Source: Antedon mediterranea (lineage: Eukaryota > Animalia > Echinodermata). From it: a stretch of 64,000 nt of DNA. How positions within the stretch are numbered: the first letter of the stretch is position 1; each line of letters opens with the position of its first letter. The position numbers and the translations under genes were made by a program. Of this stretch, positions 3,201 to 48,200 are shown piece after piece. The stretch is from the NCBI RefSeq assembly GCF_964355755.1, contig NC_092674.1:18910001-18974000 (forward strand), in the 5' to 3' direction. A model generated the notes under the pieces. It was not told where the DNA came from and ran no database searches. It worked only from the letters and a program-made list of their open reading frames with translations.

Positions 3201-6200
3201 CGTATCTTATTCAATCATATCTTATACCAGACTGACATTTATAATTTAAAATTAGACACGATAGCATTGCACAGGACATGGGACAAAATGCATGCGCATC
3301 TTGAATGATAGGATGAATGAGGTAAAGACTAAATCTATTTTAAACATTTCTTCTTTTATTTCTAAAATTGTTTTTACTGTATAAACAGTACCCATAATTT
3401 GGATGTTACAAAACATGAGTCTTCAATACTCCAAGTATGAACCAGTCTCTTTCTGCTACACAATGAAACAAAAACATTCAATTTGAAGTAATTAATTAGT
3501 TTATGTGCACTATTACAGCATAAAATATCCAAAACTGCTTACTCTTTGGCAAGCTGTACATTGGTAGGTTGTGCTCCAATTGGAATTCCATGTTTGTGTA
3601 GTGTATCTATTAACTGTTCTTGTACCTCTTGGTTGTAAACATCAAAATCAAACACATTCTTCACGACATTAGCAATGCCTTCATTAGGAAATTTCTGAAA
3701 ACAATAAAGAATATCAATAAAGTTGTGAATAAAGTTTGGTTGTACACGATGGTCACTGATTTCATCAAGTGACATGCATGTGAGCAGACTGAAGCTTCAC
3801 GTTTCCTACAAGTAGTAAAAAGGACCATTGTATAATTCATTTAATGTTTTTGATATTAGGAACTGTTTCTAATATGGAAAACAGGTTTTAAAGTTGTTGG
3901 AAACAAACTAAAATCAGCTTCTCATTTGCTTATTAAGGTCATTATTTTTTTGATCAAAAATATCCTTACTTTATGTTTCACTGTACTGTACCTGTATTAT
4001 ATTGATTTAATTATCCATTGTACAGAATTTAGACATTTTAAGAGTTTTTTCTTTTTATAATAAATCAGTTGTATACTACCGTTTCTTGTCTATTTCTCAC
4101 TATAAAATTATATTTCTATTATTCTTATTCAAAATAATATATATCCCTTACCTCTAAGTGCTTGACCATATTGACAACTTCTCTGGTAGAGTATGGATAT
4201 GATATAAGGCCTTGATCTGCCATGCTCCGTAGTTCTCCAAAGGCAAGTACTAACTTTTTCAATATAGTATCTGGAACACTTGGTCCGTACTTCTTTAACA
4301 TTGCCATTTCCGATTCCATGTCTGGGTTATCCACAGCATGACAACTAAAAATATCACCTTTAACCAAATATAATAATATATTATTATAACAAACACAAGT
4401 ACAGTATATCTATGCCATTTGATTTTGTATCCCACAGTCATTTGTTACAAATAAATTGCTTCTAAAGTTTAGTGTGGATTTGCTGATTTTGTATAACACA
4501 TTGTTACTATAGCACTGGATATTTCGTCTTATTTAATGGTAAGTAAAATCGAATGGTAATGTTAATAATCAGCAAGATTTGTTGTGCTACCCATAGTGTA
4601 GTACTAAAGGCATACCATTATCCAAGTAATATGCTGTATCAGTTAACACTAATATTTCCAAACCTGTGTACATAAATTCAATGGTTTCCAAGTCCAGTAT
4701 GTATACATATTTAATAAAAAATACAGCCACTTAAAACCTTCTGGTGAATATGGTTTACACAGAATTTTACTGACTTATCTCACTGATTTAGCTAATTCAA
4801 TAATAAAATACAGTACCACAAATATTTTTCTATAATATATACACCAGAAAAAATGATTTTTTTTAAGATTGCCATTCGAGATTGATTCTCTTTAAAGTAT
4901 TGCTTTAACTTACCTAACGAACCGAAGAAGTCATTACCAAGAAAAGGAAAACCAGGTCTATTGGCTAAAACAACCATACGGAAGTTGGGATGAGTTACAA
5001 TTACATTCTCAGATGGTTGAATATGAGATCCACCTTGAAAAACAAATATAAACCAAAAGAATAATATCTGTAGTGATGAAATGGATACAATTAGCAATGT
5101 AAGTTAATTATGGTTTTATTTCACACCCTCTATTTTCAATCATTTACTTATGGTACATTAATGCTTTACAGTAAACATGTGTTGATCTATTCTGACTTTA
5201 TTTTAAAATCATTATTATTAAATCATTAGTTGTAGATAAATTGTGGCTAATGACACTATTATTGTAGATCTAATTTGCTTGTTGACCTGCTATTTTATAA
5301 TGTTATTATTTATTTCCATTTCAGCAAGGTTCAATATAAAAATAGAAAGTACTGTAAATGCATTTACAAAAAAAAAATGACACTTTATCATGTTGTCTAG
5401 CTTATAAAGAAAGTAATATAGAGAAGAAAAACAAATAATGAATGAATAAGACAGACAGACAGTCCTCAGTAAAAAAGAACGGAGTTATAAATGGGAAATT
5501 TTAAGAGGCAATATAATTGGACCATGTAGTGAATAAATTGTATACAGTCAACTCTCCCAATACCGGACTCACGGAAAACCGGACTTTTTTGGAGGGCCCA
5601 ATTTGTCCCTATTCTAAATGTACTGTAATTTATTATGAAAACCGGAATACCCAATTCCGGAATCCGGACAAATTATGAAGTACAAAACACAAAAATTAGT
5701 GTCTGAAAACCGGACTGACAGTTAAAAAACTCCAAATATTTACGAAAACAACGTAACATCGTCGTCGCTGACTCGGATTCAATACATTCACAATGTACAA
5801 AAGCTTTTAACCATACCCTGACCATGCATGAAGTGCGCGACGTTTCGCGGTACGATCAAATAATGTTGCCATGGAGCGTTACACTGTGATTGACAGATCA
5901 GTTCATTGTTAACCCACGAGGCGGCAATTGCTTTGTTGCGTATCGAACCGCGGTGGGCTTTTTCACATCGAAGCGCTATGTCTTAATGTCTATTGTTTTT
6001 AGCAGGGAGTAGTTAACAACTCCCTGTTTTTTAGCATATGAATTGTTTTTTAATAAAGTTCAATTTACATTCCACTTTGTGTCTTTGTTTTGTTTAAATT
6101 ATTGTTAAATTCACAATTGAAATAGGACTTTAAAAAGGAATGTTTCACTAAAAATGTGCATCATTATAAATTTGGAAATCATTATGGCAAAACGTAAACG

Positions 6201-21200: not shown

Positions 21201-24200
21201 TCCGAAGCATTTGGGGTAAGTCAAAACCATTTTGATTTTGATTTGTAACCTTGATTGAAAAAGTGAGAGTTTACATATACACTAAATTGTTTTTGATATT
21301 TGATTAATAATTAATATTATAAAGTATGGTCGACGTTGTTGATAACGAAGTAATTTTAAATGAGCCCGTCAATCCTCACCCCGTGCCCCACCTAAGACAA
21401 ACCGATTTCCTTCCCAAAAGATATGACGGTTCCATAACCGATCACGACCAATGTAGTGCACATTACTTATCGTTTACCGACTACCTTGAGGCCCACACGT
21501 TAGAAAACCCTGTAAACAATGCCCAATTAATTAATGTAATAAGTATTTTTAAACGTAGCCTTCAGGGCCAAGCTAGACTCTGGATTGAGGGAAAGCAGTT
21601 CGATTCACTAGAATCCTTAAAAACCCAATTCATCAACAGGTTTAGTAAAAACAAATCAATCTATGCGCACATAAGAGAATACGATTCAATTACATACACC
21701 ACTGGCGACAACGCCGAAAAGCACTTAACCAAAATCAAACAAGCCGCAGACAGAATTGGATACGCTGACCAGCAGATAAAGAATAAATTTATTTCGACCC
21801 TTCCACCAAAATGTAGAGCAGCTGTAGCCATGTCCACCCCAATCGATTCCACTATTGAAAATATTGTAAATAGCACACAAAATTACCTTGACCTTTCCGT
21901 AGATGATGCCACACGGGAAGTTTCATTCAATATCAATAAGGAAACAGATAGGCCTAATAGTCTCGAATCGCTCCAACATGAGATAAATTCTCTCAAGTTA
22001 GACATGGCCACAACAAAACGATCCCTTAATGATGATACTCGACGCTCACGTTCCCCCACCCGAAATTATATCCCAAGACGAAACCGAAGCCCAAGCCCAT
22101 ACAAACCCCGATTCCAGACCCCACCGACCCCAAGATATAGACAACCTCCCCCAACCTGTTATTACTGCGGGAAACCAGGCCACATAGCAAGGCACTGCCG
22201 ACAACAAAACCGCTCTTACGGAAACTATCCCCCGCCATACCCATACCAACAGTCAAACAATTACTACCCTAGCCACCAGCAGGATTTTTAAAAAGGGGAC
22301 TAGATGCCGCCTATAATCTGGCCCCCCATACTAAATACGACAATTTTAAGGCAAAATACTTAGGAAATTCAGATAATATTGATTTGTTACTTAACGACAG
22401 AAATTACGTTAAAGGAAATTTACCAGATGGTAGAAATGTTTTAACTTTATTTGACAGTGGTTCAACTAGAACTATAATCTCACAATCGTACGTTAATTCC
22501 TCACTTTATTTATCGCGTTTAAAGCCAGTTAAAGTGAACACAACCAAATTTCGATTAGGTAACGGTGACTTCTTATATGCCAACCACTTAGTGCAATTCG
22601 AATTATTTATCCAAGGACACAAATTTAAAATTTCAGCATTAATCGTTAAAAATTTGACAGGTATTGACCTGATACTTGGAACCGAAACATTGTCTGAACT
22701 CGACGGTACTTTAAATTTTAAGGAAAACACATTTCGCATTAGACCAAAGATTTTTAGCTTTCGTCCAGTACACAAGATTTTTCTTAAACCCGGTGATACT
22801 AAAACAGTTAAATTAAAAGGAAGGGTTCCCGCCTTTGTACGCAATTCCGATGTTGTTCTACATGCAACCACCCATATTTCAAAACTTTGTCCATCAGATA
22901 TGTTAGTAAAATTACACAGAGGAGAAACCAACATTGATATCACTAACAACACAAACAGAAACGTATCTCTAAATACACATCAACCTATCGCGAGCCTTCA
23001 CTTAACCAACCTTGTAACAGTTACTAACGACCTACCAATTGATAGAATAAAGTTGACCAATGACAACGCAAATAAGTACCCACATTTAGAACGTACAGAC
23101 CCATTGCTATCTTTAACCGAGGAAGAAATAATTAGAAAACAAGTTGATTTAACAGACAGCGTTTTAACACATAGAGAAAAAGAAGATTTGTATAAAACCT
23201 TACAACAAAACAGAAACGCATTTTCACTTTATGGTGAACTATCTAGCTGCCCAAACTTCAAAGCCGACATACACCTCTCTGACGATGAACCATTTTTTAT
23301 TCGCCCATACTTCGCGACAGACAAAGACAAAAATGTTATTGAGGCCGAATTGAACAAATTAGTCAAACTAGGAATCTTAGCAGTAGGACACCAATCGTAT
23401 ACTTCCCCTGTCCTTCTTGTTTCAAAGAAAAATTCAAAAGATAAAAGAGTTGTCACAGACTTCCGCTATCTAAATTCCAGGATAAAACGTATTAATCACC
23501 CATTCCCATTATTAGCCGAAACTTTGAAAACAATAGGTAACGCTAATGCACAGATTCTTAGCGTAATTGATTTGAAATCAGCGTTCCACTGTGTACCATT
23601 AGCCGAACATGCCCAACAATATACAGGTATAGCTTCATATCATGGTGGAAAACATTATTATTATAAGAGATTAGCACAAGGATTAAACGTTTCACCAGGT
23701 ATATTTCAAGCAAAGATTGACGAAATTTTAAATGAAATCCCAAATTCTAGAGAATTCTGTATCGCCCATCATGATGATATCATTTTATTTAGCCAAGACA
23801 AATTTGCTCATAAGCAGCACCTTGTTTCCGTTTTACAAGCCCTACAATTAAATGGTTTTAGAATTTGCCCAAAGAAATGTAAGTTATTCAAGAATAAAGT
23901 GCAATATATGGGACACACCATCCTGATTAATTCTTCAGGACACGCATGTATCACACCATTAGGCGACAGGTGTGCAGCTATCCGAAATTTGCCAGTCCCA
24001 CGAACCCATAAAGAAACTAAACGATTTATTGGTGCAGTAAATTATGTATCCCATTTTTTCCCTCAAATACAATCAATTTTACGTCCGTTACACACACTCG
24101 CAAGCAAACGCCGAAAATTTGTTTGGTCTACTGACCACCAGAAAGCATTTGACGAAATTAAACAATTAATGGTTAAACCACCTACTCTTCAAATGCCTAG

Positions 24201-27200
24201 AAAAGAAGGTAGATTTACGCTATATAGCGACACTTCAAGAACCGCAACAGGTTCATATTTAACACAAACAGTAAACGATAAAGAACACATAATAGGTTAT
24301 TATTCCAAAATCTTACCACAAGCCTGTCAACGATATAGCGTCACAGAATTAGAGTTATTTGGACTTTACATTAACGTTTCAGCATTTCGACACTTACTAA
24401 AGGGTTGCGAATTTGATGCATTCGTAGACCACTCAGCAATTGTACAAATTTGGAATTCAAAAGATCAGCCATGTACACCCCGTTTACAGAAACTAATATT
24501 ACGATTGTCCGGATACATTTTCCAAATTGGTTATAAGAAAGGAACTGAATTAGTTTTAGCAGATTTCCTCTCCCGAGCCCCTCGTGATGACGATTCCGAA
24601 ATTGATCAAGTTGTACCCATTGCATTTAATATTACAGAGACTGCATCTCTTAACCCGATTACAAACACATCTACTAGCAGACCAGTAACAAGGTCATACG
24701 CCAAGAAAATGGGAATAAATATACCTGACCTACATAAACCCAAACCCAAACAAACGCCTGTCATTAATCAAAACCCAGTGACAACAAACACGCGACCTAC
24801 ACCTCAACCTTCCACTACACCACAGATAATCACGAGACAACAAACAAACGCACATCGATCACCGCCTATCATAACGCCACCTATCGCAACACCACCCCCA
24901 ATACGTAATGTAAACATTCGACAACCTCCAGAGGAACGACTAGTAGACAAAAATAAACAAAGCAAAGACACTACACATCGAAATGTACCAGTTGAATTGT
25001 ATACATCGCCCAAACCACTAGTACCAAACATAACTGAATTTAAGTCAGCACACATCCCAAAACAACAAGACTTAGATAGATTAATGGATGTTATTCAAAG
25101 AAAGATAATTAGAGATTATAACCTCCCAGTAGATGTTAAACAATTACGTGTTGAACAAGAAACTTCACCATTTTTTAAGCCAGTTTACGATTATTTAGTT
25201 CATGATATCCTTCCAGCTGATAAGAAAGCAGCTCGTGCAGTTCAGAATAAGTCAGAGCAGTACATATTGTGCAACGGTTTACTATTCCGTTTATTTTTCC
25301 AAGATAAAGGTGGAGAATTTGTATTGCAATTAGCTGTTCCTGAAAACTTAGCAGAGACTGTTATTTCTCAGTATCACGACAATTTGTTAAGTAGCCACCA
25401 AGGTACGATGCGTACTTACCTTACTATTAGGAAATTATTTTACATGCCTCTTATGTTCGAGAAAGTCAACAATTATACCCAAGCGTGTCTTAGATGTCAA
25501 CAATTTCGTCCCAAAACCGATAAATTACGTCCTTTACACGATCGAGTACCAGCAACTTACCGTCCCTTTCATACACTCAGTCTAGATTTTAAGAGTATGC
25601 CAACATCGCCTTCAGGTTTTAAACATATTATGGTAGTATGTGATGAGATAACTAGATTTTTGATTTGTGTACCTTTGAAATCCATTGATGCCGAAACAAT
25701 TTGTGAAGCACTAATTCAAAAGGTCATCAGTATTTTTGGACCCCCATCTCGTCTTATTTCAGATGCAGCAACCTCCCTTACAGGAAAATTATTAACACTA
25801 TTATGTAACACCCTTAATATTGATAGGAAAATCATCAGCGTCCACAATCACGGTAGTTTACAAGTTGAACGTCATATCCGCACCGTATCGGACCTGTTAA
25901 AAGTGAACCTTAACCAATTCGGAACAGATTGGGTTAGATTTGTATCAACAACATGTTATGCCTATAACTCGTTTTCATCCCCACATCTAGGAAACCACTC
26001 CCCTTACGAATTAGTTTTTGGCCGCCAACCTCCAAGTTTGACCTCATTAGCATTTAACCCTATTTCAGGATTGTCTCATTCCTATGAAGAATACTTTGAA
26101 CATCTCAAGAAGAAATTTCAAAACATTTCACAGACAATGCTACAATTACAGCGAACACAACAAAACGTCCAAAACTCAAAAATTTCCCAACGCTTAGAAA
26201 AATGTCCAATTTACTCAGTAGGACAACTCGTATATTTATACAAGCCAACATCATCATCACTAACGGCAAATTCAAAGAAAATCGCCGCAGAATGGGTCGG
26301 ACCATTAGTGATCCATGAAGTACTAGACAGAACACACTACATCCTAGCGACGATTAAAGGAGAAATACTTCGCGACGTATTCAATTATAACAGACTGAAA
26401 CCCTGTTTTATGAGAACACCCAAAGAACGCAAAAATTTTACACATCTCCAAAAACTTAAACAATTGTTGAATGAACCCACCGATGATAATAACGATAAAA
26501 TCCAAAACACCATTAATGTAGTAAATGACGAAACCAATGTTGAATTTGTAGACGAACATGATAGGACACCCACCCAATTGCAATCAGATACCCTTACACA
26601 TCCAACTAAAGTAGAACCCCTTAACTTTCAACCTTACATTGACTGTGTAGAGAATAACATGGGATTAGCAGCCCCATTCCAAATGAAAGAAGAACAAATC
26701 AAGGAACAAACTAATCTAATTATGACAGCACCTAATGATTCAATTATGACATTAAACCGAGGTAGATTTAAAGCAGGACATTTCCAAGTTTTAGTTTCGT
26801 ATTCTAAACCGACTTCAGCCAAACGCAACACTGATGAAACAAAACACGAATCTAATGATCGCCAATTTTGGTGGAATATTGACAGATATAACGATACAGA
26901 TAAATTGATTAAAGAGATCATTAATGATAAACAGATACCGATAAGTGGATCGCCAAAACGATTCATAAAACGTTTGTATAATGCAACGAATTACTGATTT
27001 AATTTTTTTGCAAGATTATTTTTAAATTACGACATTTGCTAAATTAATGATAGCATAGTCTACGTATTTTTGATGAGATTTGTTAAGTAATGATGTGATT
27101 TCAGTTAAAAGAGAATTGAATTTATGATTAAGTATTGATTTTGTAACGAGTTTGATAATGATTAATTTTGAATTTTGAATGATCGATATATTGAGATATT

Positions 27201-30200
27201 GAAAAGAACGACAATCATTTTGTAACAAATATTTTGTTTAACCTTTGAGTCGTTAATCTCAAGCATTAATTAATTGATATACAATAACAGGAGATTTTCT
27301 TAGTACTTTTAATTGTAATTTTTTTAACATTGAGTACAAAAGTCGAATTTGCCGACCGATTGAAATCGTAATTACCTGTAAATATAAATGCTTAAATCGA
27401 TAAAGTTGTGACGATAACGATATATTGTGGATAAGTTTGTGTCAACGGGACACACACATTTGTTTCTTTAAAGTTTTAAGTGATTGAGTTTGATATTTTG
27501 ATTCTAGGCTAATCAGCCACAGTTTCTTGAGTTTTATGTTTCGATTTGATTGATTTATATTTGAAGGCCATTAGAACGCGATAAGTTGTCGCGCTATTTG
27601 ATATATATTCATTGTACATATTCTTTAAGTTCTTTAAATTTGACCAATTGACGTTTGATTAACGCTCGAGGGAGGAGTAGAGCCAATTACGAGCTATATA
27701 TATAAACAACCGGATGGGCAGACTATAAATAAGTCGCACGAGCGTATCAAATATACAGTATTTACTGTCGAATTATAAGTTAATTTACTTTTGTGAGATT
27801 GTTATAATAGTTGAACTTAAAATTTTATTGTTTGAGTTTTATATTGTTTATTTAGTTTAATATTGTTTATTTTAAATACATTTTAATTTTATTTATCGTA
27901 ATTTTAGTCAATTCCAAATTTCCCCCTAAAATGGAATCCGAAAAGCTTGACCTTACACAGTTATGCTTAAAACACAAAATTCAAATGACGCCCCTGTCCA
28001 CAGAATGTGCCCTTATAAAGAAGATAATCCTTTACCAAAGCGAACAAAACGTAATTCTCCATATTACCAAAACGATGCCATTTACTTTAGATTCCTTGAA
28101 AAGAGTTTTATTATTCCTTTGCGACATCCGTCCAGCAGACCAACTGACAAACCTCAAATTAAATACCCTTTTACACATTGGCAGTTATTTATGTTGTTTC
28201 GACAAAATGTCCTCCCCCATTATAGATTACATTTGGAAGCATAAGAGTGAACCAGCCCTACTTGACTTTTCCACAATCGACCTTTCCATTAATCTAGACG
28301 GCATCGCCACTTGTATACCAAACACACATGAATTTCACAGACAACATATTTATTCTATGACCCTCCTGCTCTTAGCAATTACAAAAGACATCAAAGCCCC
28401 ACAATGCACAGCATTTTTTTCAAGAGTCCGACAACAAACAGGCATCATACCCCAAGACGAATTAAAACCTAGCGAACACTCACCATTTGGATATGTTGTA
28501 ACTAAATATAAGAAAAAACTATATTCGCACATTCGTAACATGCAGTACCTGGAAAATAAATACCAAGATACCCCCTGCCAAATTTGTCAATGTAACCCCG
28601 AAATTAAAAACTTTCATACTGACTGTACAATCAACAAATGCTGCGGAACATTTTTTCACAAAAATTGCCAACAAATATCCCTCAACAAGAAATACCAATG
28701 CTTGAATTGCGGTATGGTATATTTGAATGAGATCCCTTACACAACTACCTACATGTTGGACATACCGTGGAGTGCATTCCGTTTTTATCGATTATTATAT
28801 AAACCCACCGATTGATTTCAATTTATCCTTTATAAAATTTTTTTTTCTATTTCAAATAATTAACGGGAGTCGACTTCTTGACCGATGTTTTTTAGGGAAA
28901 CCCAACCGTTGTGATGTTTATATTTCGGTAATCCGAGTGTAGCATGCCTCCAAAGCAACGGACCCACAATTATGTCGATCTTGAAGAACACTTTTGTTTT
29001 TTTTATATACATTTTTTGTTTTAAATTTTATATAAATTCCGGAATTTTTATACCAAATTCAATTTTAATTTCATTTTTTAAAGAGAGAGAAGAGAGAGAG
29101 TGAAAGTGATAAGGTTACACTTCAGAGTCAATGGTTTTGGCTAACTCAATTTTTGCTTATATGTATAATAATGTTTTTTTCTTTTATATAACTTTAATTT
29201 TGCATGCCACTATTATAACCATTTTTATATGTTAAATAGATTAGAAAAAAAAAAGGGAAACAGAGGGATGTGATATAAAGATATACTTTTATATTTAAGA
29301 AATTGACCTTTGTATCGGAATTCAGATAGGTTCACAAAGTTGACCCAGAAAGTCCGAAGGAGAGTTTGTCCAGATGTTTTAATGACCATTTAGTTTATAA
29401 TAGAATCCCTAAAGAAAACACTTAGCTTAACTTTGCGACCGTTCCCATCGTAAAACAATTAGATTCTGACAGTTTTAAGCAGAGATTTGACAGGGCCAAT
29501 TCATCATTGTAACCTCCCCAGATAAGATCAATCACTCCCACTTAAACACCCCTGGATCAACTTAGGACCAATCGTTACCCTCACAGATTACGTAGTGACA
29601 TATGCAAATGAACTGAGCCAATATACTCCCAAGTTTCAGAAGGGCCCAGACACATCTTACAACCACGCCACGGAACACACACCTTACAACCACTTCTCCA
29701 GAAGCAGACCTACACACACCACACCTCACTGACAGCATCATTGAATGTCCGTTCCTTATGTATACTTATAGTTGTATATTGTACTGAAGTATTATACAGA
29801 ATAAATAATATATGTGTTACGACAGTCAAGCGAGTAAGAGTCCTTCATTAGTACCTCAACAACCCAAACATTATATTACATTACCCACGTGTTTTCATCA
29901 TTATTTCCACTGTATATAGGCCTAGATCTCAGCCCTACAATTATGACAAAATTTGCCGTAAATAAAACATACCTCAGCATTTATTTAAGAAAAAAATATA
30001 GTAAAGCCAAATTTCTGTTTCTATTGTTTTTATTTTGTAGTAAAAAACATTTTCCCCAGGCTCTTGTGTTACGAAAATAAAGCAGGCCTCGTAATGATGA
30101 AGAAAACAATGATTGTGATTAGTCTATCCAGTCCAGTCAAAGATATATATTCTTTAGTTCAGTCGGTTGAAAATAACCCTTAACTTGCTAATAAAAGGGA

Positions 30201-33200: not shown

Positions 33201-36200
33201 CCCATTTTATCATATCCAATAACCATTAACGTTATAGAAGTCCAGTTTTGGAAGAGCCTATATGTAAATTGACAGACGGCAGCGTAAAATTAACCAGCAT
33301 TACAATACCGCGTACAATTTCCCGCCGGCTGTCAGCGTATTTTTTGTGTTGATATATTTCTGAACATGCTCAGAATGAATTTCTGACTGTTTGGATTGCT
33401 TGTGTGCGTATGAGAAGGTACGAAAAGCATATACACACTGTGAAAACCCTGTCATATGGGTCGTTGATTTGTCCATAATTATTGCATTTTGTTGGAGATT
33501 CCTTATCATTTAAGTATTTCCATAGTACCCTATTTATCTTTATTTTATGTCCGTAATATTGGGCCCAATTTCCGTAGTAATTACGGAAGTTCCAAACTTT
33601 GTTTAACTGCTTCTTTTTGCAAATTTCGATCATATTTTCTTTCTAAAGTGTAGTTTAAGCAACACTGTTGTACAGATTATAATGGATAAATGGAAATGAA
33701 TGTTGGAAAGTGTGGTTATACTGACTTATTGATCAAATAAATACAATTTAACGTTTTGCTCAATATATTTATAGCAGCAGCTTCATATTTGTTTAATTAT
33801 TAATTGATAATATTAATTAATTTGTATTTATTGATTATAATTGCCAGAATTTATTAGCTTACCGGAAGTACCTTCGTCGGGGACTTCTCTGAGGTTAAAA
33901 ATGGTTGCGTGTATTTTGCCGGCGGAAAAAATAGGCGGGATACGATAGTATAGGCCTATTGCTGTTTGGTAGCCTGATAAAGAGTGTCATTTCTTGCCAA
34001 CTATAGGTGCCATTTATCGTGAATTTTATGTGCGAGAGTACCATATTTCCGGCCATCTAGGGGTGTCATTTAACAAAATTTGCTAAACCACAGGCCCCAC
34101 CATGGGGGGCATGTGGCGCAAAAACTTGTTGTCTACGGTACTGGACTTGTGGGCAACTCCCTTAAAATAGTTCTGTGACCGCCCCTGACCTGTGAGTCTT
34201 TTCTGCCTTTATATGTGGTTATATACTTTGCATGTATAATAAAAGCGCACTCTGATAAAAGAACTTTGACAAATTATCAAACTAAAAACAAACGGTTAAT
34301 AATAAAATTCGGATGTATTTTATGGTCATTGATTTTGTGCTGTGTGAATTAGTTAGATGTACAAAATACGAAACTACCGTATAGATATAATAAAAAAGTG
34401 GACATAAATCGAATGAAAAACACATTACTGCGGAAACACAATTGTTAAGTTGTTTTCATGTTCAACAATGTATCAAACCATTTGGAATCGTTTTGTTTGT
34501 GTGTGTTTTTTTTTCATTTACATTTTTTTTATTTCAATGGTTTTAATATTTTTGCGTGAGGTTTGGTTCTATTTTGCTACTTTTGTATTACATTGTGGTT
34601 TAGATTTTTTGCTTTAAACGGAGATATTTACTATTTACACATATCGCGGATTCGAAATTGTTTAAAAAAAATGAATATTAAATCTAGTTACAATTTCCTG
34701 TGTGCTTAAAATTATAATCCTTCTGCACATTTTTGCTTATTACAAATGGTAAAATCCGCAATTTACAGAAAAACCCCTTGTGATTATAACTTTCTTCAAC
34801 CAACCAAAGTTCTTATTTCTTTCCGCAATATTTTGTGAGTTATGTTTGTAGACCTTCATGAATTAAAACATTGAACATAAATTCAAAAGTAATTCATATA
34901 TACTTATATATATGTTCCGCCGTACCACGCCGAGAATGTTAAAGAGTCGCTATCCAATCGAGTTTGAACAATACCATGAAAGCCCCAGTGGTCTAATGGT
35001 TAGGACATCTGCATATCAAGCAGGCGGTCCGAGTTCGAGTCTCGGTTGGGGCGACTTTTTCTCATTCTCACAGATTTCCTCATCTTTATCGTTTCAAATT
35101 AATTAATTAAATTTCAGTATATCACCGGGCGGTTTCGAATTAATGTTTATTGCCTAATGTGTTTATATATATTTATATATATATAAATCCAAAGGCAAAT
35201 TACTGAAAACAATGACAATGCTGTGGGTATCAGTGGCCAGATCTCAATGGAGATACAAAAGAAAATAAGCAGAAAGCTAAATCAAAACAGCCAGAAAAAT
35301 TATCAGAGCTTTCGGGCAACACTAGCCCTTCATCAGTGCAAGTGAGAGTACTTGGACAAAGTAGATAGTAAAGCAAACAAGCTTATATTATTTTTAAATT
35401 TGACAAAAGTATACTTTATAGCAAGGGTGTAGTGCCGCAAATCGTAAAATCAATTTAAAACATGAAAATCTACAAAATAAAACCTTAAAATCAACGCAAA
35501 TATTCTTCAAAACAAAGTGTATGGCTGCAAATTGTGAAACTATAACTCAAACCATAAAAATCAACACAATTTGTGAAATATATATATTTAATCAAAAATC
35601 TTTTTTTCTCAAGTAATCTATTCTTCATAAAGGTGGATTACACGGAGGAATCTTTTTTCAGGTTTTATTGAATGGTATATAGGTTCGATGTGCAGTGAAA
35701 TCAGCTACAATATTTGAGGAACCAAGATCAAATCCAGGATCTTTCCTGGATGGATTCTGCCAAAAAATAAAAGCGAGACAATGCTAGGCTAGACCTACAT
35801 CTATAGCTAGTACGATTTTTGTACCATTGTTACCAGGCTACGAGTAGAGCCTACAAACTAGCCTATAGGAGAATGTTTAACACAAACTATATTTTGTTAT
35901 TTAATAAAAAAAAAACAATAATTAATAGAGGCAAATTCTTTAATCGCACCAATCCCAAAACCTGGACATGTCCCCCTCCACCTAATTTTGAGGGGATGGA
36001 CTCCCTCACTTTTTTTCTTCCTCAAATTTTATTATTAAAAACTGGTAATATTTGTTAAAAACAAGAATAATATACCGATTTAATACTGCTAATGTACCAG
36101 GATTAACTCGGTGAAGCCCATCAAGTACTGCTATACTGCCATCTACAGCTGCTGTGATAAGTGGTGATAATCTCCAAGATGTGTCACCATTTGGTGAGGT

Positions 36201-39200
36201 CATTCTTTGCTGTAGAAAATCCCTTGAGGTCATATCCTGAATAACAATAATAATAATATAATTCTTGTTTTTTCAGTCAAAAATTTATAGAATAAATTAT
36301 AGCCAAACTTTTCTTATCAAACAATCATCTACAGGATATTGCTTGAAAAATTCACATCATTTTAAACATTAAACAACAATTGTATGTGATTGATATAAAA
36401 CTTTAAAACTATATGCATTGAATAACCCTTTACATGCTTATTTGTATCTCCTAATCTTGAGAACTGACCTGGTACAACATGACAAGTTCAAGTTGATAGC
36501 CTAGCATACTTGCAAAGCGTTTTACAAGCAAACTTTTGCCACATCCCTATAGAAGAGAAAGTATTTTAATTCAACATTTTAACAGGTAATACAATTGACC
36601 TATTAATATTCAAAATAGTTTTTATTTGTCCACTTATTTCTATTTTTTTCTATTTGTGTTGAGCACTTCTACTTTTGCTTTTTTTTAAATATTGTAAAAT
36701 TGTAAAATTTAAAAATAAAAATTAAATTACACACCTATGAATCTGGCAAAATATTGGGATAGTAAAAATTAAGTTTTTTTCATAATATTAAATTTGACTG
36801 TTAAATTGGCAGACTGAATTTAGAAACAAAACCTGATAATTAACAATTTATATTAACATATTGATTTTCTCAATCAAATCCAAACTTTAATTACTTTTGT
36901 GTTTATACCCATCACAGCTTTTGTTATAGTTATCTGTATTGAAAAAATAAATGAAATGAAATGAACTACTAACCTTTGGTCCAATAAGACAAAAGTCTTT
37001 GACACTATGTGAAAGCATCATATCAGCTAAAACATGTTCATGCGATGGTACAGATATATAGTCCATGCTATCAGGTGAAGATGGTGATTGGTTACCTCTT
37101 GCCATGTTAACATTAAACTTTGCTCCTCTGCTTTGGATAGTGACATCTGCATTATCTTCATTTGTCATGTATTGTATATTCGATATACTGCATGGAGTTA
37201 AATTTCCATATTTATCCTCAAGCAATTCAAATTTCTGAAAAAAACAAACAAAACACTCAATCAAATGAAAGAGTTTTAATGAGAATCCAAGATGTTCTAA
37301 AGCTGAAGACAAATCATACTAGGCAACATTGAAGCAAGACTACCGTAAACCTCAAAAAGAAGCCCATGGGCTTAAACCTCGAAAAGAAGCCCATCTCGAA
37401 AAGAAGCCCCCCTCTACAGTTTACAAAAGTGCTCTCGAAAAGAAGCCCATCTTGAAATGAAGCCCCTTGGGCTTCTTTTCAAGATAGTATGGGCTCCTTT
37501 TCGAGAGCACGTTTATTAACTGAACGTCAAAGGAACAGAAATAAACAATACAAATACGTGATTAAGAGTTACTGTAGTAGAATAATTAAATGCCAGATAC
37601 TTGTGATGCAGACTGATGATAATAATTAATATGTATGATTATTTTACAGTTTATTGTCGTCCAAATGGTGCTTTGATCGCATCTTGTATCTTTTACTTGT
37701 CTGCTTCGTTGGCAAATATGTAAAATCGGCAGGGAATTTCCACACCTCCACCAAGTACCCATTTTCCTTCTGGGGCCGTTCGTTCCATTCCAGTTATCTT
37801 GGCTTTAAAGCTGCACTACTGTCCTATCTTCCATCAACGGAGCTATCTGAGCCAAACATTCAGGAACATGTCGAACATCTGCACCATTCAACGAACATAC
37901 CTTTATTGCATTTCTGGCTATACTTTTCTTGTTTTCAGGTTCCAGTTTACATATCATTTCTTTGTTTATTTTGTAATTGTACTGAAAAACATGGTGTCCT
38001 TTAATTCTAGATGAAACAATTGCCACTTTGTGGATAGGACTTGGTGTAGCCATTTTCGTTTACTGTATTATTTATTTTTATATTATGCACCAGCTATAAA
38101 GCAAAAGTATAAGACCCCAGTAAAAAATGTCTGGGCCTAGACGATACGCGTTATGCACAGCGCCTGCACTGCGTATTTGTTGTCAAACGTAACAGTAAAC
38201 AACACGTTGTGTGTGTATTTGCTATTTTTCTTTGCTTTTGCAAAATGGTAAAGACGAGGAAAGTGTATACTCGAGACTATAAGCTTAATGTTTAGCAGTG
38301 GCATGGCACTAATGGCAATTGTGTCACAAAGACTGCAAAAGAATTTAGTATTGATCGTAAGCTGGTGCGAGAGTAGAAAAAGAAAAAGGACGCAATTGCT
38401 GCAATACATTCAAAGAACTGTTCTTCGTTGGCGTGCGAGGAAGAAAGACACCATATGAGACACTTAAGCAAAAGCTTCTTCAAGAGTTCAAAGAAAAGCG
38501 GAATAATGGTATTGAAGTGAAACGATGGTGGATAGAGTCTAGAGATAAGCAAATTGCAGTAGAAGAGGGAGCAGTTGGCTTTAAAACCTCAAATGGATGG
38601 TTTATGAATTTCAAGAAGAGGAATAAACTAAGCCATCAAAGGAAAACGCACCAAGCACAAAAACCACCGACAGCTTTGGGTCCAGCCATTACTTTCTTCC
38701 ACCAAGCCGTCCGAAGACAACGTTTAATGCGAGACTTTGCAGATAGTGAAATAGTTAACATGGATCAAACACCACTGCCCTTTATTATGTCTGATGAAAG
38801 AACGTATGACGTAGAAGGAAAGAAAGAGATATGGGTGGCAAGTGGCTCATCTGGTCTCGAGAAACGACAGTGTACGGTTCAGTTGACTATATTTGCAGAT
38901 GGAATCCCTAGGGTACGACCGATGGTCAAATTTAGAGGAATGGGATTAAGAATTTCACAAAAAGAAAAGTTCAGTTAAAATACCGGTATTATAGTGAAAA
39001 CGGATTTTTAATAATAATTATAACTGTCACTAGCAATCCAATAAAATTTAGACTATAATAAATGCTTAAAAATGTACTTCCATTTTCAGAGTCAATGGGA
39101 TAAGAGAGTCAGGGTGGAATTTCAACCTAAAGCATGGTGTGACGAAGGCATTATGAAGATTTGGATAGATGAAGAGTGGGAAAACCGATTTACCAATCCT

Positions 39201-42200
39201 GTGGCCCCAAATTGTAAGCACATGTTGATCACAGATGTACATAAAGCACAGCAAACAGACACAGTTAAGGAGCTTTTGGCCGCCAAACACAATGTGTTGG
39301 TCAACGTACTCCCTGGTTGTAACAGCAGAGTACAGCCCCTCGATGTTGTATTCAACAAGCCATTTAAGAATGCGATAAAAGAGGAGTTTTTATAACAAAG
39401 TGGGTTGGCAATGCCTGGTCCATGATGAACAGAAATCCATCGCTGCAAATTCGGTCGTTCAGAAAGTGTGGGATAAATGTAGCCCTTGATGGTTCTGAAA
39501 ACAAAGAAGTAAACGCGAAGGGTTGGTTGGATATGAGATGCCATCATCGACAGACGACACTCTTGAAAAGTCCATTGTGGATGATGACGACGATGATAAC
39601 GAAATGATTTTATTTGACGTTGAATCATAGGACTGTTTTTTTTGCTTTTATATTTGTTTTTTAATTGGTATATTAAACATAATTTCATGGTTGAAAAAAT
39701 GTCTCAAAAGTCTTATTATTGTAGTAAAAATTCACAAAATTTACAGCATTCATTTCGAAAAGAAGCTCCCCTCTACAGTTTGCCAAAGTACTCTCGAAAA
39801 GAAGCCCATCTCGAAAAAAGAAGCCCATCCAAGAGAACTAGGTGGTTTTACGGTATGCTTTTGGGAAAAACGTGATATTTACTGTATTTGCCAATGTAAG
39901 GTAATTCCTACATTTCAAGCAAAACTAATTAACTTGATTTGTATTTAATTACTTATATCGGTTACATACATTTAGTAATATCCAGAAACTACCATTCCCA
40001 CACAGTTTTTTTCATTATTACAAAACAACGCAACTAAGAATAAGCTTTATATTTTTGATACTACGTCAACAGATTCATTCATATGGAAAGTTGGAATTAT
40101 TTAATTTTCCGCTTTGCCAAATTGGAAAATTTTAATTCATAACGATTTCCTTTTGGCAAATTGGAAGATATTGTGTTTATTACATTTGCACACTGCCGGT
40201 TGTAAAGGAGAAGATAATACGTGTCATGATGGCACAGGTGTGCATGTCATGACATATGAAATAATCACCCATCTGATTATAGAATACATGCCACTCACAA
40301 TGTATTTATAAATTATAGTAAAATTAATAATATCAATTATTATTATTAATATTAAGAAATGTGATTATGTGAATGTGGTTTAATGAAATCTCTATGGTGT
40401 TATAACCAACCACAAATATAACAATTGTAGGTTCCAAGCAAAATGGGTACAATTGTTCAGCCTACATTTTCTAACAGTTTTTAGTCAATTTTTAAATTAC
40501 ATGACCAAAACAACCTTGTCAGCTGAAATAATATATCTCCCATATTATGTATGTATCATCTACAGTAATTACTGCCAAACAAAATATCCTAAAAAAACAT
40601 ATTCTATGAATAATAGAGATGGTGACAAAATAAATGGCTAAATTCAACCAAAAATCCATTAGCTGGCAGCCAATTTTTGGTCAAAGTGTATAAATTATGA
40701 GACATTAAAATGGCATATTCAACAGAAAAATGTTTAAGAATTATTTTGTTCAGGGGGACAATACATCTTTAAGTCTGGATATCACATTTGGTATGCTGGG
40801 ATTTTTAATTCCTAATTGAAATTTAGAACACACTAAATCAATGATTTATTCTTTTAAGGTATACTAAATATAAATACAGAAGTGCATAATGGGTGAAAAG
40901 TAAACAAATATCATTCCTGTATATTATAAGTAATACTTCAAATAATTATATTAAATAGAATATTTGAATTATGTTTCCAAACAAGATATAAAATATATAT
41001 TATTCATATTTTAATTTAAAAAATCTATATATAAATTTATGTAAGGGCAAAATCCGGTAAATCGCGCGTTACTTCTAGAATGTTTACTCGATGGTATATA
41101 AAGTTGGTTCGTACATTCGGTACTGATTTTAACCACCTGATGAAACCCTGTTTACTAATTAAATTGAGTTAGATAATTAGTTATTGAAAATTAAATGATT
41201 CAATGATTTGCCCCAAATAGGGGTGTTTTCTTGTATCTGGACAACTACCCCCTGGACAATTACCCCCTGGACAATTACCACCCGGACAACTACCACCCAG
41301 ATAATGAACCCCCTAGGACAACTACCACCCGGACAACTACCACCCGGACAATTACCCACTAGGACAACTACCCTCTAGGACAACTACCCCCTTAGGACAA
41401 CTACCCTCTAGGAAAACTACCCCCTTAGGACAACTACCCTCTAGGACAACTACCCCCTTAGGACAACTCCCACCCCGACAACTACTCCCTAGGACAACTA
41501 CCCTCCTAGGACAACCCCTCTAGGACAACTACCCCCTTAGGACAACTACCCTCTAGGACAACTACCCCCTAGGACAACTCCCACCCCGACAACTACTCCC
41601 TAGGACAACTACCCTCTAGTCCAACTGCTATGCCCCTAGACAACAACACCCTCTGAACAACCACACCTATATCATGACACCTACACCTTAGGTTATAATT
41701 ACGATCTTGTAAAACTTACTGAACTTCAAAACATAGGGAGAGAGATTGATCTTAAATGAAAGCTTTTGAATATTTTAATATGCGTATCGTCAGCAGTTAT
41801 TTTACATTAAACGAGAATTGATCAAATTATTAAAACGTATTCTTGAAAAATAAAGGGGTGGCTTATTTTATTCTTGTGTGACATGAAGATGCCGTATATA
41901 AATCTAGGAACATACAGTTTACCTAGCTGCACCAGTCAATTAAACAGACGTCTTTCATTTAAGATCAATCTCTCTCCCTATGTTTTGAAGTTCAGTAAGT
42001 TTTACAAGATCGTAATTATAACCTAAGGTGTAGGTGTGGTTGTTCTAGAGGGGGAGTTGTGCTAGGGGCATAGCAGTTGGACTAGAGGGTAGTTGTAAGA
42101 TAGTGGGACTGGAGCAGTCCCTTAATATCGATAAAATTGACCAGATTTTGTTCTCTCTTTTCTTTTTCAAAACAAATGTTTTACCGTAAGAGCTTATGTT

Positions 42201-45200: not shown

Positions 45201-48200
45201 AACCAATTTTTTTTCCCATCCCTCAACCTTAATGTTACATACAAAACATGGGTTTTGTTAAATTTTACTCAAACATTTTGTGACTTTCTTTTTCGGAAGT
45301 AATTCCCAGGATGCTAATTTTAGTTGACTACATAAATCACAGTGTCTATTTATTGTTCCTGGAAACGGCTTGTTCTGCGGTATGTACATTTGAAATGAGC
45401 AGTTTTTTTACGCTGAAATTGTACTATTTATTTGAGAACCATCTGTGGGCACGACCTAGATGGTACACAAGGTTTTGTTAACATTTTGTTACACATCAAC
45501 ATTTTAAACTTATAATATATCAGTTAAATTTAATTCAAATTCTTTGATGAATTGCTTTCTATTAAAAACAATATTATTTGATCAATCAAGACATGGCCAA
45601 AGCCCATGGAGCCAACATAGTCCAACGTGCTCATCTCTGTCAACTTTTTTTAATGCGCACTGTAACATTGGTATACAAATTTATTTGTAATACTTTCTAT
45701 TATTTGTTTACTAGTATCGAACAATGTCAGTTAAGCCTTCAACATGTATACCTAGATGTCAGTTAAGCCTTCAACATGTATACCTAGATGTCAGTTAAGC
45801 CTTCAACATGTATACCTAGATGTCAGTTAAGCCTTCAACATGTATACCTAGATGTCAGTTAAGCCTTCAACATGTATACCTAGATGTCAGTTAAGCCTTC
45901 AACATGTATACCTAGATGTGCAATATTACTAGCAGTCTTCCAGTCACTGTTTCTTATTCTTAACATGCAATTTGGCGAATTGTGTATGAAAATGTTGAAT
46001 TACCCCAAATTTCACACCAATACATTAAAATTAAATTTGTAATCTCAAATTTTATTCCGTACATTAGATGCAAGGAATTTAGAATTATTACAAATAGATG
46101 TTCTAAGAGCAAAAAAAACATTCTTAGCTTTTTGACAATTTTACTCAATCATTATTCCATAAACCATTTGAGTTTTTGTATAATCATTTTTAAAATGTTT
46201 TTTTAACATGCCTCCTTTATTGAATAAGATTACTTTTGATTTATACTGTAGTAGCATAGAGGAAATTACAGGATCTACATATTTAATTAATATATATAAT
46301 ATATAATAATAATTATTTAAACATGATGACATCATCAAAATGAAACATGAAGATAGCAATATTCAAATGAATCCAAATTCATATCAACAATTAAACGTCC
46401 GTAAAAAGTTTTAATAATGATGATGGTTACTGTACTTTTCATTTTAAAGAGCTATAAAATATTCAAATGTACTGTGTAGGTGAAATTAAGTGACCCACAT
46501 TATTCAAATTTTGAGGCATGATGATATTCAATCCTGATCTAATGCCAGGCTTGTAACTCGCATTTCATTTTGATTAATAACAAGTTGAGCTGTGTTTTAT
46601 ACACTTTTGGGCAGTATTGATAATTACATACTGCAGTAGTATTAATAATTAAAGATTTTAATTAGATCTGGAAAACATGTTTATTTTACAGAATTTGATA
46701 TTCACTTTATTGCAGATGTAAGGTAATTTCCACATTTTAAGAAAAACTAATTAACTTGGTTTGTTACATACACAGTAGTACTATCCAGAAACTAAAATAC
46801 AATTTTTTCATTATTACAAAACAATACAAATCTGCTGACACACACTATGTCAACAGATATATTCATATGGAAAATTATGGAAGTTGCACTTATTCCACTT
46901 TCCTCTTTGAAATTTGTAACAATTTTTAAGCGACAGCAAGTAAGGATTGGAAGGGAAAATTGAAATAATGAAATAAAAAACTAAAAAATAGGTTTATTGT
47001 ATCGATATCATTTATCAATATTATTAAATCTATAAGTTCACTTCATAACAGCGTAGCATAATGTTCAGTTTTTTTCCCCTTGTGTCCCTCCAATCCCTGA
47101 TGGTTTTTAAAATTTTAAATTAGTAAAAAAATTGTGGATTTCATCATTCTCAGACTTGTTTACTTACTTGTTGCTTCTCTTAGGAACTGTACACTTTTTA
47201 AAAGACATGATCAGAGAAAACATGCCAACCCCTGCTGAAGTGTATAGGTGTAGTTGTAACATGCAAACCCCTGCTGAAGTGTATAGGTGTAGTTGTAACA
47301 TGCCAACCCCTGCTGAAGTGTATAGGTGTAGTTGTAACATGCCAACCCCTGCTGAAGTGTATAGGTGTAGTTGTAACATGCCAACCCCTGCTGAAGTGTA
47401 TAGGTGTAGTTGTAACATGCCAACCCCTGCTGAAGTGTATAGGTGTAGTTGTAACATGCAAACCCCTGCTGAAGTGTATAGGTGTAGTTGTAACATGCCA
47501 ACCCCTGCTGAAGTGTATAGGTGTAGTTGTAACATGCCAACCCCTGCTGAAGTGTATAGGTGTAGTTGTAACATGGCAACCCCTGCTGAAGTGTATAGGT
47601 GTAGTTGTAACATGGCAACCCCTGCTGAAGTGTATAGGTGTAGTTGTAACATGCCAACCCCAGCTGAAGTGTATAGGTGTAGTTGTAACATGCCAACCCC
47701 TGCTGAAGTGTATAGGTGTAGTTGTAACATGCCAACCCCTGCTGAAGTGTATACAGTAGGTGTAGTTGTAACATGCCAACCCCTGCTGAAGTGTATAGGT
47801 GTAGTTGTAACATGCCAACCCCTGCTGAAGTGTATAGGTGTAGTTGTAACATGCCAACCCCTGCTGAAGTGTATAGGTGTAGTTGTAACATGCCAACCCC
47901 TGCTGAAGTGTATAGGTGTAGTTGTAACATGCCAACCCCTGCTGAAGTGTATAGGTGTAGTTGTAACATGCCAACCCCTGCTGAAGTGTATAGGTGTAGT
48001 TGTAACATGCCAACCCCTGCTGAAGTGTATAGGTGTAGTTGTATTACAAGAGATATTTTCACTAGTTGGTTATGGTGTATCTATTTATTTGTCTAACATA
48101 ACCTGACATTGTCAAACATGGAATTCTGGAGATCCTATTAGCTCCTTTTTTCAAAAACTCTCTTCGCTCGCTCCCCCTCTAGGAAGTGTAGACGATGGTT

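Follow-up and report, generated by a model that had tools for sequence, protein, structure and literature searches.

A decayed Passer-type pogo transposon with a second, HIRAN-like gene in Antedon mediterranea

Introduction

Tc1/mariner/pogo elements are the textbook one-gene transposons. Within a stretch of 64,000 nucleotides from the echinoderm Antedon mediterranea (assembly GCF_964355755.1, contig NC_092674.1, positions 18,910,001 to 18,974,000 of the forward strand; hereafter the window), we analysed a pogo element in which the transposase gene is accompanied by a divergently oriented gene for a protein resembling the HIRAN domain. The element family is almost certainly a selected two-gene element. 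PIF/Harbinger elements are cut-and-paste transposons that likewise carry a second gene for a DNA-binding protein, oriented differently in different elements; the partner there is Myb/SANT-like and needed for transposition. The element described here differs in its superfamily, in having a HIRAN-like partner, and in that this partner seems dispensable in related elements. Genes other than a transposase also occur in TA-flanked IS630-Tc1-mariner elements, which are alike in their TA flanks and extra genes; their cargo is an endonuclease, a methyltransferase or Fanzor, the elements are single-copy, and HIRAN is unmentioned in the paper that describes them.

The closest described elements are those of the Passer (PS) family of the pogo superfamily (PMC7386202, PMC9976928), which is under development as a gene-delivery tool. 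Passer elements resemble the window element and its relatives in TA duplication, CCGTA terminus, a DD35D transposase with HTH_Tnp_Tc5 and DDE_1 domains, a BrkDBD domain (in the intact relatives), a length of about 2.2-2.5 kb and short inverted repeats (25-27 bp in the relatives). They are described there with one transposase open reading frame (ORF), whereas the window family has a second conserved gene inside the repeats; the window copy is further unlike them in its inverted repeat of only 7 bp and in an intron-like insert in its transposase.

A second gene with a predicted HIRAN fold

Judged by its sequence, the element at 37343-39853 is a decayed Passer-type pogo DNA transposon. A preliminary description of this DNA gave the same TA-flanked boundaries and the same two start codons (Table 1), called the second protein HIRAN-like and considered both genes decayed; each of these points is borne out, as is the presence of all four quoted motifs (IKGHH, LEPEN..NAIKV, VxHVP..APLM and TG..GGGVEIPC) in the second gene. 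The decayed window protein itself falls below the cut-off for the Pfam HIRAN domain (PF08797; E 0.002, 18.2 bits against 24.7) and matches HLTF at E 0.014, and a word-based search with it returned three candidates, none of them significant. A profile built from its relatives matches both pieces of the window gene (E 1e-17 and 1e-12). Among these relatives, which come from other elements described below, L001 (38.9 bits) and L002 (28.1) pass the Pfam cut-off and L003 (14.8) falls below it, and a profile of 79 HIRAN-like relatives matches HLTF at 2e-8.

The second gene is predicted to encode a HIRAN fold, on a structure model made from the intact relative L001 rather than from the window protein (predicted local distance difference test score, pLDDT, 82.6). 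The model is a beta-barrel with two helices, matching HLTF HIRAN, and all 13 of its Foldseek matches under E 0.001 are HLTF (E 2e-6, TM 0.75). Aligned with HLTF HIRAN by VIA-align, it gives Z 14.5 and a root-mean-square deviation of 2.3 over 111 residues, the next unrelated structure reaching Z 5.3; Rad5 and the stand-alone bacterial lp_0118 share the predicted fold at Z 11.3 and 9.1. Positions G69, Y73, N91, A97, G109 and H110 of the HIRAN domain are kept in the transposon-borne protein. It differs from HLTF and Rad5 in being encoded by a stand-alone gene on a transposon, in the replacement of D94, Y72, R71 and K113 in its clade, and in features that are absent from HLTF, namely a conserved APEGxW loop and a GxGxExPC motif together with a His/His/His/Cys set. 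Residues H17, H55, E99 and C102 are nearly invariant.

Three lesions disrupt the window gene: an extra base near 37807, where a frameshift had been described, a stop codon at 37695-37693, and a deficit of three bases at 37843 relative to other copies. Part of the element is contained in 14 runs of four coded organisms (labelled with X), five of which were aligned to the window. In all four runs that cover the gene, position 37695 belongs to a sense codon and the sequence is three bases longer at 37843, and VGHVP is read in all three that cover this motif. The comparison at 37807 covers X5, X8 and X9: the extra base is missing from X5 and X8, and X9, whose alignment is gappy here, lacks one base at 37810. 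The gene is found in copies from related organisms without the window lesions, and a 448-nt X5 contig joins its 5' part, the spacer and the start of the transposase. Seven substitutions are private to the window copy, six of which alter or end a codon. These changes look like ordinary decay after insertion, with lesions not common to other copies.

Selection and recurrence of the gene pair

Neutral decay of this kind, together with the many broken relatives, is what a captured host fragment carried without function would show. The comparison of distant elements speaks against such neutral cargo. Over the six pairs formed by the window, L001, L002 and L004, second codon positions of the HIRAN-like gene are 69-82% identical and third positions 27-47%, and four-fold sites are identical at 41 of 133. 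The pattern is that of purifying selection on the second gene. Third positions are saturated, and protein identity over the same pairs, at 39-55%, is close to the 46-62% of the transposases, a range also found among all paired elements (L001, L002, L004, L055, L081 and the window). Frames are open in young copies (L003/L006), and the stand-alone architecture is unlike host HLTF. Neutral cargo is largely refuted by the codon-position pattern and, in our estimate, very improbable.

The relatives were found in a metagenome scan with the transposase alignment, in which the best 80 of 454 loci were kept and scored with a HIRAN profile that left out the window sequence. Six of the 80 carry a HIRAN-like gene (L001, L002, L003, L004, L006 and L055), and all six fall among the 13 loci of an animal-type clade that includes the window. 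The head-to-head pair recurs in L001, in which both genes are open, and in L002, L004 and L055; L002 is a complete TA-flanked element with one stop. L003 and L006, copies that are 99.8% identical at two sites with both genes open, have a second HIRAN type in tail-to-tail arrangement. Among the clade members without the gene, the sequence ends on the 5' side in L005 and L053, and L013, L032 and L037 are too short.

A search from the HIRAN side gave three loci, and both real ones (L081 and L082) lie inside TA-flanked inverted repeats; the match in L083, 23 residues within a bacterial gene, was rejected as spurious. L081 is a complete element with 25-bp repeats and a head-to-head pair separated by a 212-bp spacer, which adds a fifth case of the head-to-head pair; its recurrence inside terminal inverted repeats (TIRs) was among the checks suggested in the preliminary description. 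L082 is a 1.1-kb derivative with 27-bp repeats that retains the gene and, of the transposase, only the tail. Scans of viral contigs with the transposase and three HIRAN alignments gave 0 confirmed loci. L081:2138-4557 and L082:3471-4557 are on megabase contigs labelled as bacterial genome; because a Penelope-like reverse transcriptase adjoins them, these contigs are likely animal host DNA in a metagenome bin. Beside the Penelope-like element, at L081:6818-6417 on the minus strand, is a second HIRAN-like frame, of the Asp type.

In L081, the HIRAN type of the window is paired with a transposase that belongs to a different subclade; exchange of partners is therefore possible (a quick HIRAN tree was poorly supported and was not used). 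Over six elements, with the L055 gene represented by its close relative P0173, the divergences of the two proteins correlate (Spearman 0.71; 25 of 720 permutations). The gene and the transposase thus appear to have been co-inherited for a long time, with some exchange. Such a correlation, and a head-to-head layout suited to co-expression, would also fit a protein that binds or regulates the transposase directly, like the second protein of Harbinger elements. A cofactor of this kind is quite improbable, given that the correlation is no longer significant when only the head-to-head elements are considered (21 of 120 permutations), that the partners are exchangeable, and that a Passer transposase works alone.

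Several observations weigh against the second gene as a conserved helper of these elements. A whole intact HIRAN-like gene on one contig was not found for the window family; the X5 copy is frameshifted separately at 37762, and one minor X8 contig contains a stop at 38029. No HIRAN-like gene is present in the one family represented by L018/L019, over 1719 bp on the upstream and 453 bp on the downstream side, and this family may truly be without it. No such gene was found at the 67 loci outside the animal-type clade, 40 of which extend for 1500 bp or more on each side; most of the 67 group with fungal proteins. For the Asp-type frame at L081, no transposase or terminal repeat was found in the available DNA. 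Finally, one ORF with oligo-built TIRs is enough for fish Passer transposases to be active in human cells (PMC9976928). The proposal of a two-gene cut-and-paste system consequently holds for a second conserved gene and is not supported for an obligatory partner, because the fish Passer transposase works alone and the arrangement varies, L003/L006 being tail-to-tail. Since fish Passers transpose with one ORF, the helper is likely a non-essential accessory that Passer chemistry does not generally need.

The HIRAN-like family is large: 247 of 743 candidates belong to it, with clusters of 56-123 members, and 1804 representatives were found at E 1e-10, beside 7738 weaker matches that will include ordinary HIRAN proteins. 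One named member is from a coral, and the nearest Atlas clusters are from Porifera and Cnidaria. The longest contigs of the transposase and HIRAN matches agree in length (2626, 2219 and 18773), which is circumstantial only. In the published Amqu-PasserB, SVIRGHHVY, NPHD and GHMPR are encoded by a HIRAN-like frame within the first 400 bases; in Neve-pogo1 (pogoR, DD31D), the first 400 bases contain GYGLEIPC on the minus strand (both read by eye). From these stretches, the gene appears to be already present, unannotated, in published pogo sequences and to reach beyond Passer. HIRAN is unmentioned in the searched texts and supplements of PMC7386202 and PMC9976928, and no transposon-borne HIRAN gene is described in the literature searched by listings and abstracts, with PMC3417536 and PMC3627910 checked and subscription papers, the original 2006 HIRAN paper and Repbase entries outside the search. 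The second gene of these Passer/pogo elements is real and conserved, and apparently undescribed. A conserved helper of this kind would account for the numerous stand-alone HIRAN genes in sponges and corals. Intact young elements exist in L001 and L003/L006.

A remodelled pocket and possible functions

The HIRAN domain of HLTF binds DNA 3' ends; D94 reads the 3'-OH, and Y72 and Y93 pinch two bases (PMC5773155, PMC4666394). We mapped these residues by sequence alignment and split the clades by the APEGxW loop, with two loop-bearing sequences falling in the second group. Three observations in the loop-bearing clade, which includes the window gene, count against end binding as in HLTF: Ser occupies the D94 position in 44 of 49 sequences, the Y72 position is Val, Ala or Ile and never aromatic, and in the window element's own family the Y93 position is Lys. 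Across the clade, 42 of 49 sequences have Tyr or His at the Y93 position, R71 is replaced by His and K113 by Glu or Asp, and N91 (48 of 49) and H110 (47 of 49) are kept. R71, H110 and K113 presumably all have roles in the HLTF pocket. In the second HIRAN type, 29 of 30 sequences retain Asp at D94 and 24 of 30 have Arg at K113. Because the pocket is remodelled, the protein in the window clade probably has a ligand other than the free 3'-OH recognized by HLTF. The binding of free 3'-OH ends suggested in the preliminary description is in this respect not supported for the window type, and would suit the tail-to-tail (Asp) type better.

We tentatively favor, at somewhat less than an even chance, a helper that binds DNA ends or single-strand/double-strand junctions arising from cut-and-paste and biases the repair of the donor site or excised ends. 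The two genes would be co-expressed from the shared spacer, and the helper, acting in trans at the donor break or at the ends of the excised element, would tilt repair toward outcomes in the element's favor, by protection from resection or by refilling of the donor from the sister chromatid. Action in trans fits the retention of the gene in L082.

The same retention in a deletion derivative would also fit an anti-silencing or chromatin adaptor rather than a handler of DNA breaks. Its HIRAN fold would target a host complex or the DNA of the element, to which longer relatives would recruit a protease of the SUMO type. SUMO has a role in transposon silencing, and an Ulp1/Peptidase_C48 match was found in 5 of 31 longer relatives scanned (P0378, P0415, P0441, P0444 and P0455). 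The remodelling of the 3'-OH pocket while H17, H55, E99, C102 and the APEGxW loop were kept is consistent with this alternative. It is nevertheless an unlikely one, if of some weight: the window gene and its close relatives are single-domain, in a search limited to 64-247 amino acids, and the DNA-binding face retains N91 and H110 almost throughout. Several other long HIRAN relatives have similar C-terminal (Ulp1-type) motifs below the threshold.

Another alternative, in line with the fork targeting raised in the preliminary description, is that binding of nascent 3' ends directs insertion to replication forks or times excision at them. The HIRAN domain of HLTF binds the primer 3' end at stalled forks, and the conserved Asp and Arg of the second HIRAN type would agree with such binding. 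The clade of the window element is without D94, and we consider a role at forks improbable.

Taking the helper at the donor break as the preferred function, a wider possibility, which falls well short of being probable, is that a very large, overlooked family of stand-alone invertebrate HIRAN proteins is a dedicated pogo-type accessory that controls this break, acquired or swapped repeatedly (two HIRAN types, two layouts, Passer and pogoR). In the window type, the pocket used for this would be re-engineered, might bind a metal, and would recognize a ligand different from a free 3'-OH. If such elements do have a conserved helper with a DNA-repair fold, they would themselves be managing their breaks, targeting or silencing.

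Transposase, element ends and insertion site

The window transposase matches HTH_Tnp_Tc5 (E 1.6e-5) and DDE_1 (E 8.4e-12), and BrkDBD is above its cut-off in L001 and L002. The catalytic Asp residues are in NMDQ, ITDVH and QPLD, with 35 residues, counted on the alignment, between the last two. The transposase trees took in no published Passer protein. The gene is interrupted by two stops (38293-5, 38374-6), by two frameshifts (near 38423 and near 39515) and by a gap at 39389/90, and it also has the intron-like insert near 38970-39089. None of the listed runs is recorded as RNA, although X8 may be; its contigs end at a host exon edge and cover the element, but also part of this insert, and no conclusion on expression is drawn from them. 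The transposase of L003, from the tail-to-tail family, has an intron at 4180-4275 after its Brk-like domain, at a place that differs from the window insert; those of L001 and L002 have none.

The preliminary description mentioned a shared spacer of about 190 bp with TATA-like motifs. The spacer is as described, at 191 bp. The motifs were rejected as TATA boxes: their number is reached in 1002 of 5000 shuffles, and none occurs in the spacers of L001, L002 and L004.

Table 1. Features of the element and the adjoining host exon (window positions)
Feature	Positions	Strand	Remarks
Host exon adjoining the element	36974..37236	-	Acceptor at 37237; X8 contig ends at 37236
Left TA target-site duplication	37341..37342		From sequence; contigs with differing flanks end in TACCGTA here
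Left end	37343..37522	+	CCGTAAA terminus; AAGAAGCC-type subterminal repeats, 5 direct and 2 inverted
HIRAN-like gene, 133 codons, decayed	37651..38053	-	ATG at 38053, family end at 37651; from profile of relatives
Spacer between the two start codons, 191 bp	38054..38244		Putative two-way promoter region; no conserved TATA box
DD35D pogo/Passer transposase pseudogene	38245..39630	+	Brk-like N-terminus, HTH_Tnp_Tc5, DDE_1, acidic tail
Right end	39751..39853	+	AAGAAGCC-type repeats, 3 direct (copy of 37392-37457); TTTACGG terminus
Right TA target-site duplication	39854..39855		From sequence; X5 flank contig match begins exactly at 39854

CCGTA is present at both ends of the element, but the perfect terminal inverted repeat of the window copy is only 7 bp long, with 11 of 30 positions matching; 22 of 30 match in L002, and L003, L081 and L082 have perfect inverted repeats of 25-27 bp. 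The AAGAAGCC-type repeats, eight of which have the same orientation over both ends, with the inverted ones near 37470-37505, are likely transposase sites. Left-end contigs with TACCGTA and differing flanks number 16 in X1, 11 in X5 and 52 in X9, and the X5 flank contig that starts at the right TA is likely an empty site in a related organism.

The element sits in an intron of a minus-strand animal AAA-ATPase gene, presumably VWA8-like, whose next exon (36009-36272) matches the AAA_5 domain at E 1.9e-10.

At the two ends, summed contig depth exceeds that of the interior by a factor of tens to thousands; it reaches 1.8 million in X9 and is not taken as copy number. This excess is consistent with many short non-autonomous derivatives with these ends, likely an abundant family of miniature inverted-repeat transposable elements. 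Contig joints also connect the left and right repeats of the element. The left terminus (37343-37400) holds a 27-bp duplication, and two left-end variants occur among the contigs, with TACCGTA before 37347 and before 37374.

Other features of the window

A Gypsy-type long terminal repeat retroelement occupies 21323-28815 on the plus strand; its gag frame, which has a zinc knuckle, and its pol frame are long and open (1574 amino acids), and it is followed by a frame of 319 amino acids with a Cys-rich end and no Pfam match. The host introns contain tandem arrays at 41224-41642 (15-17-bp units) and 47111-48106 (33-bp units), and a small inverted-repeat element is found at 41714-42000.

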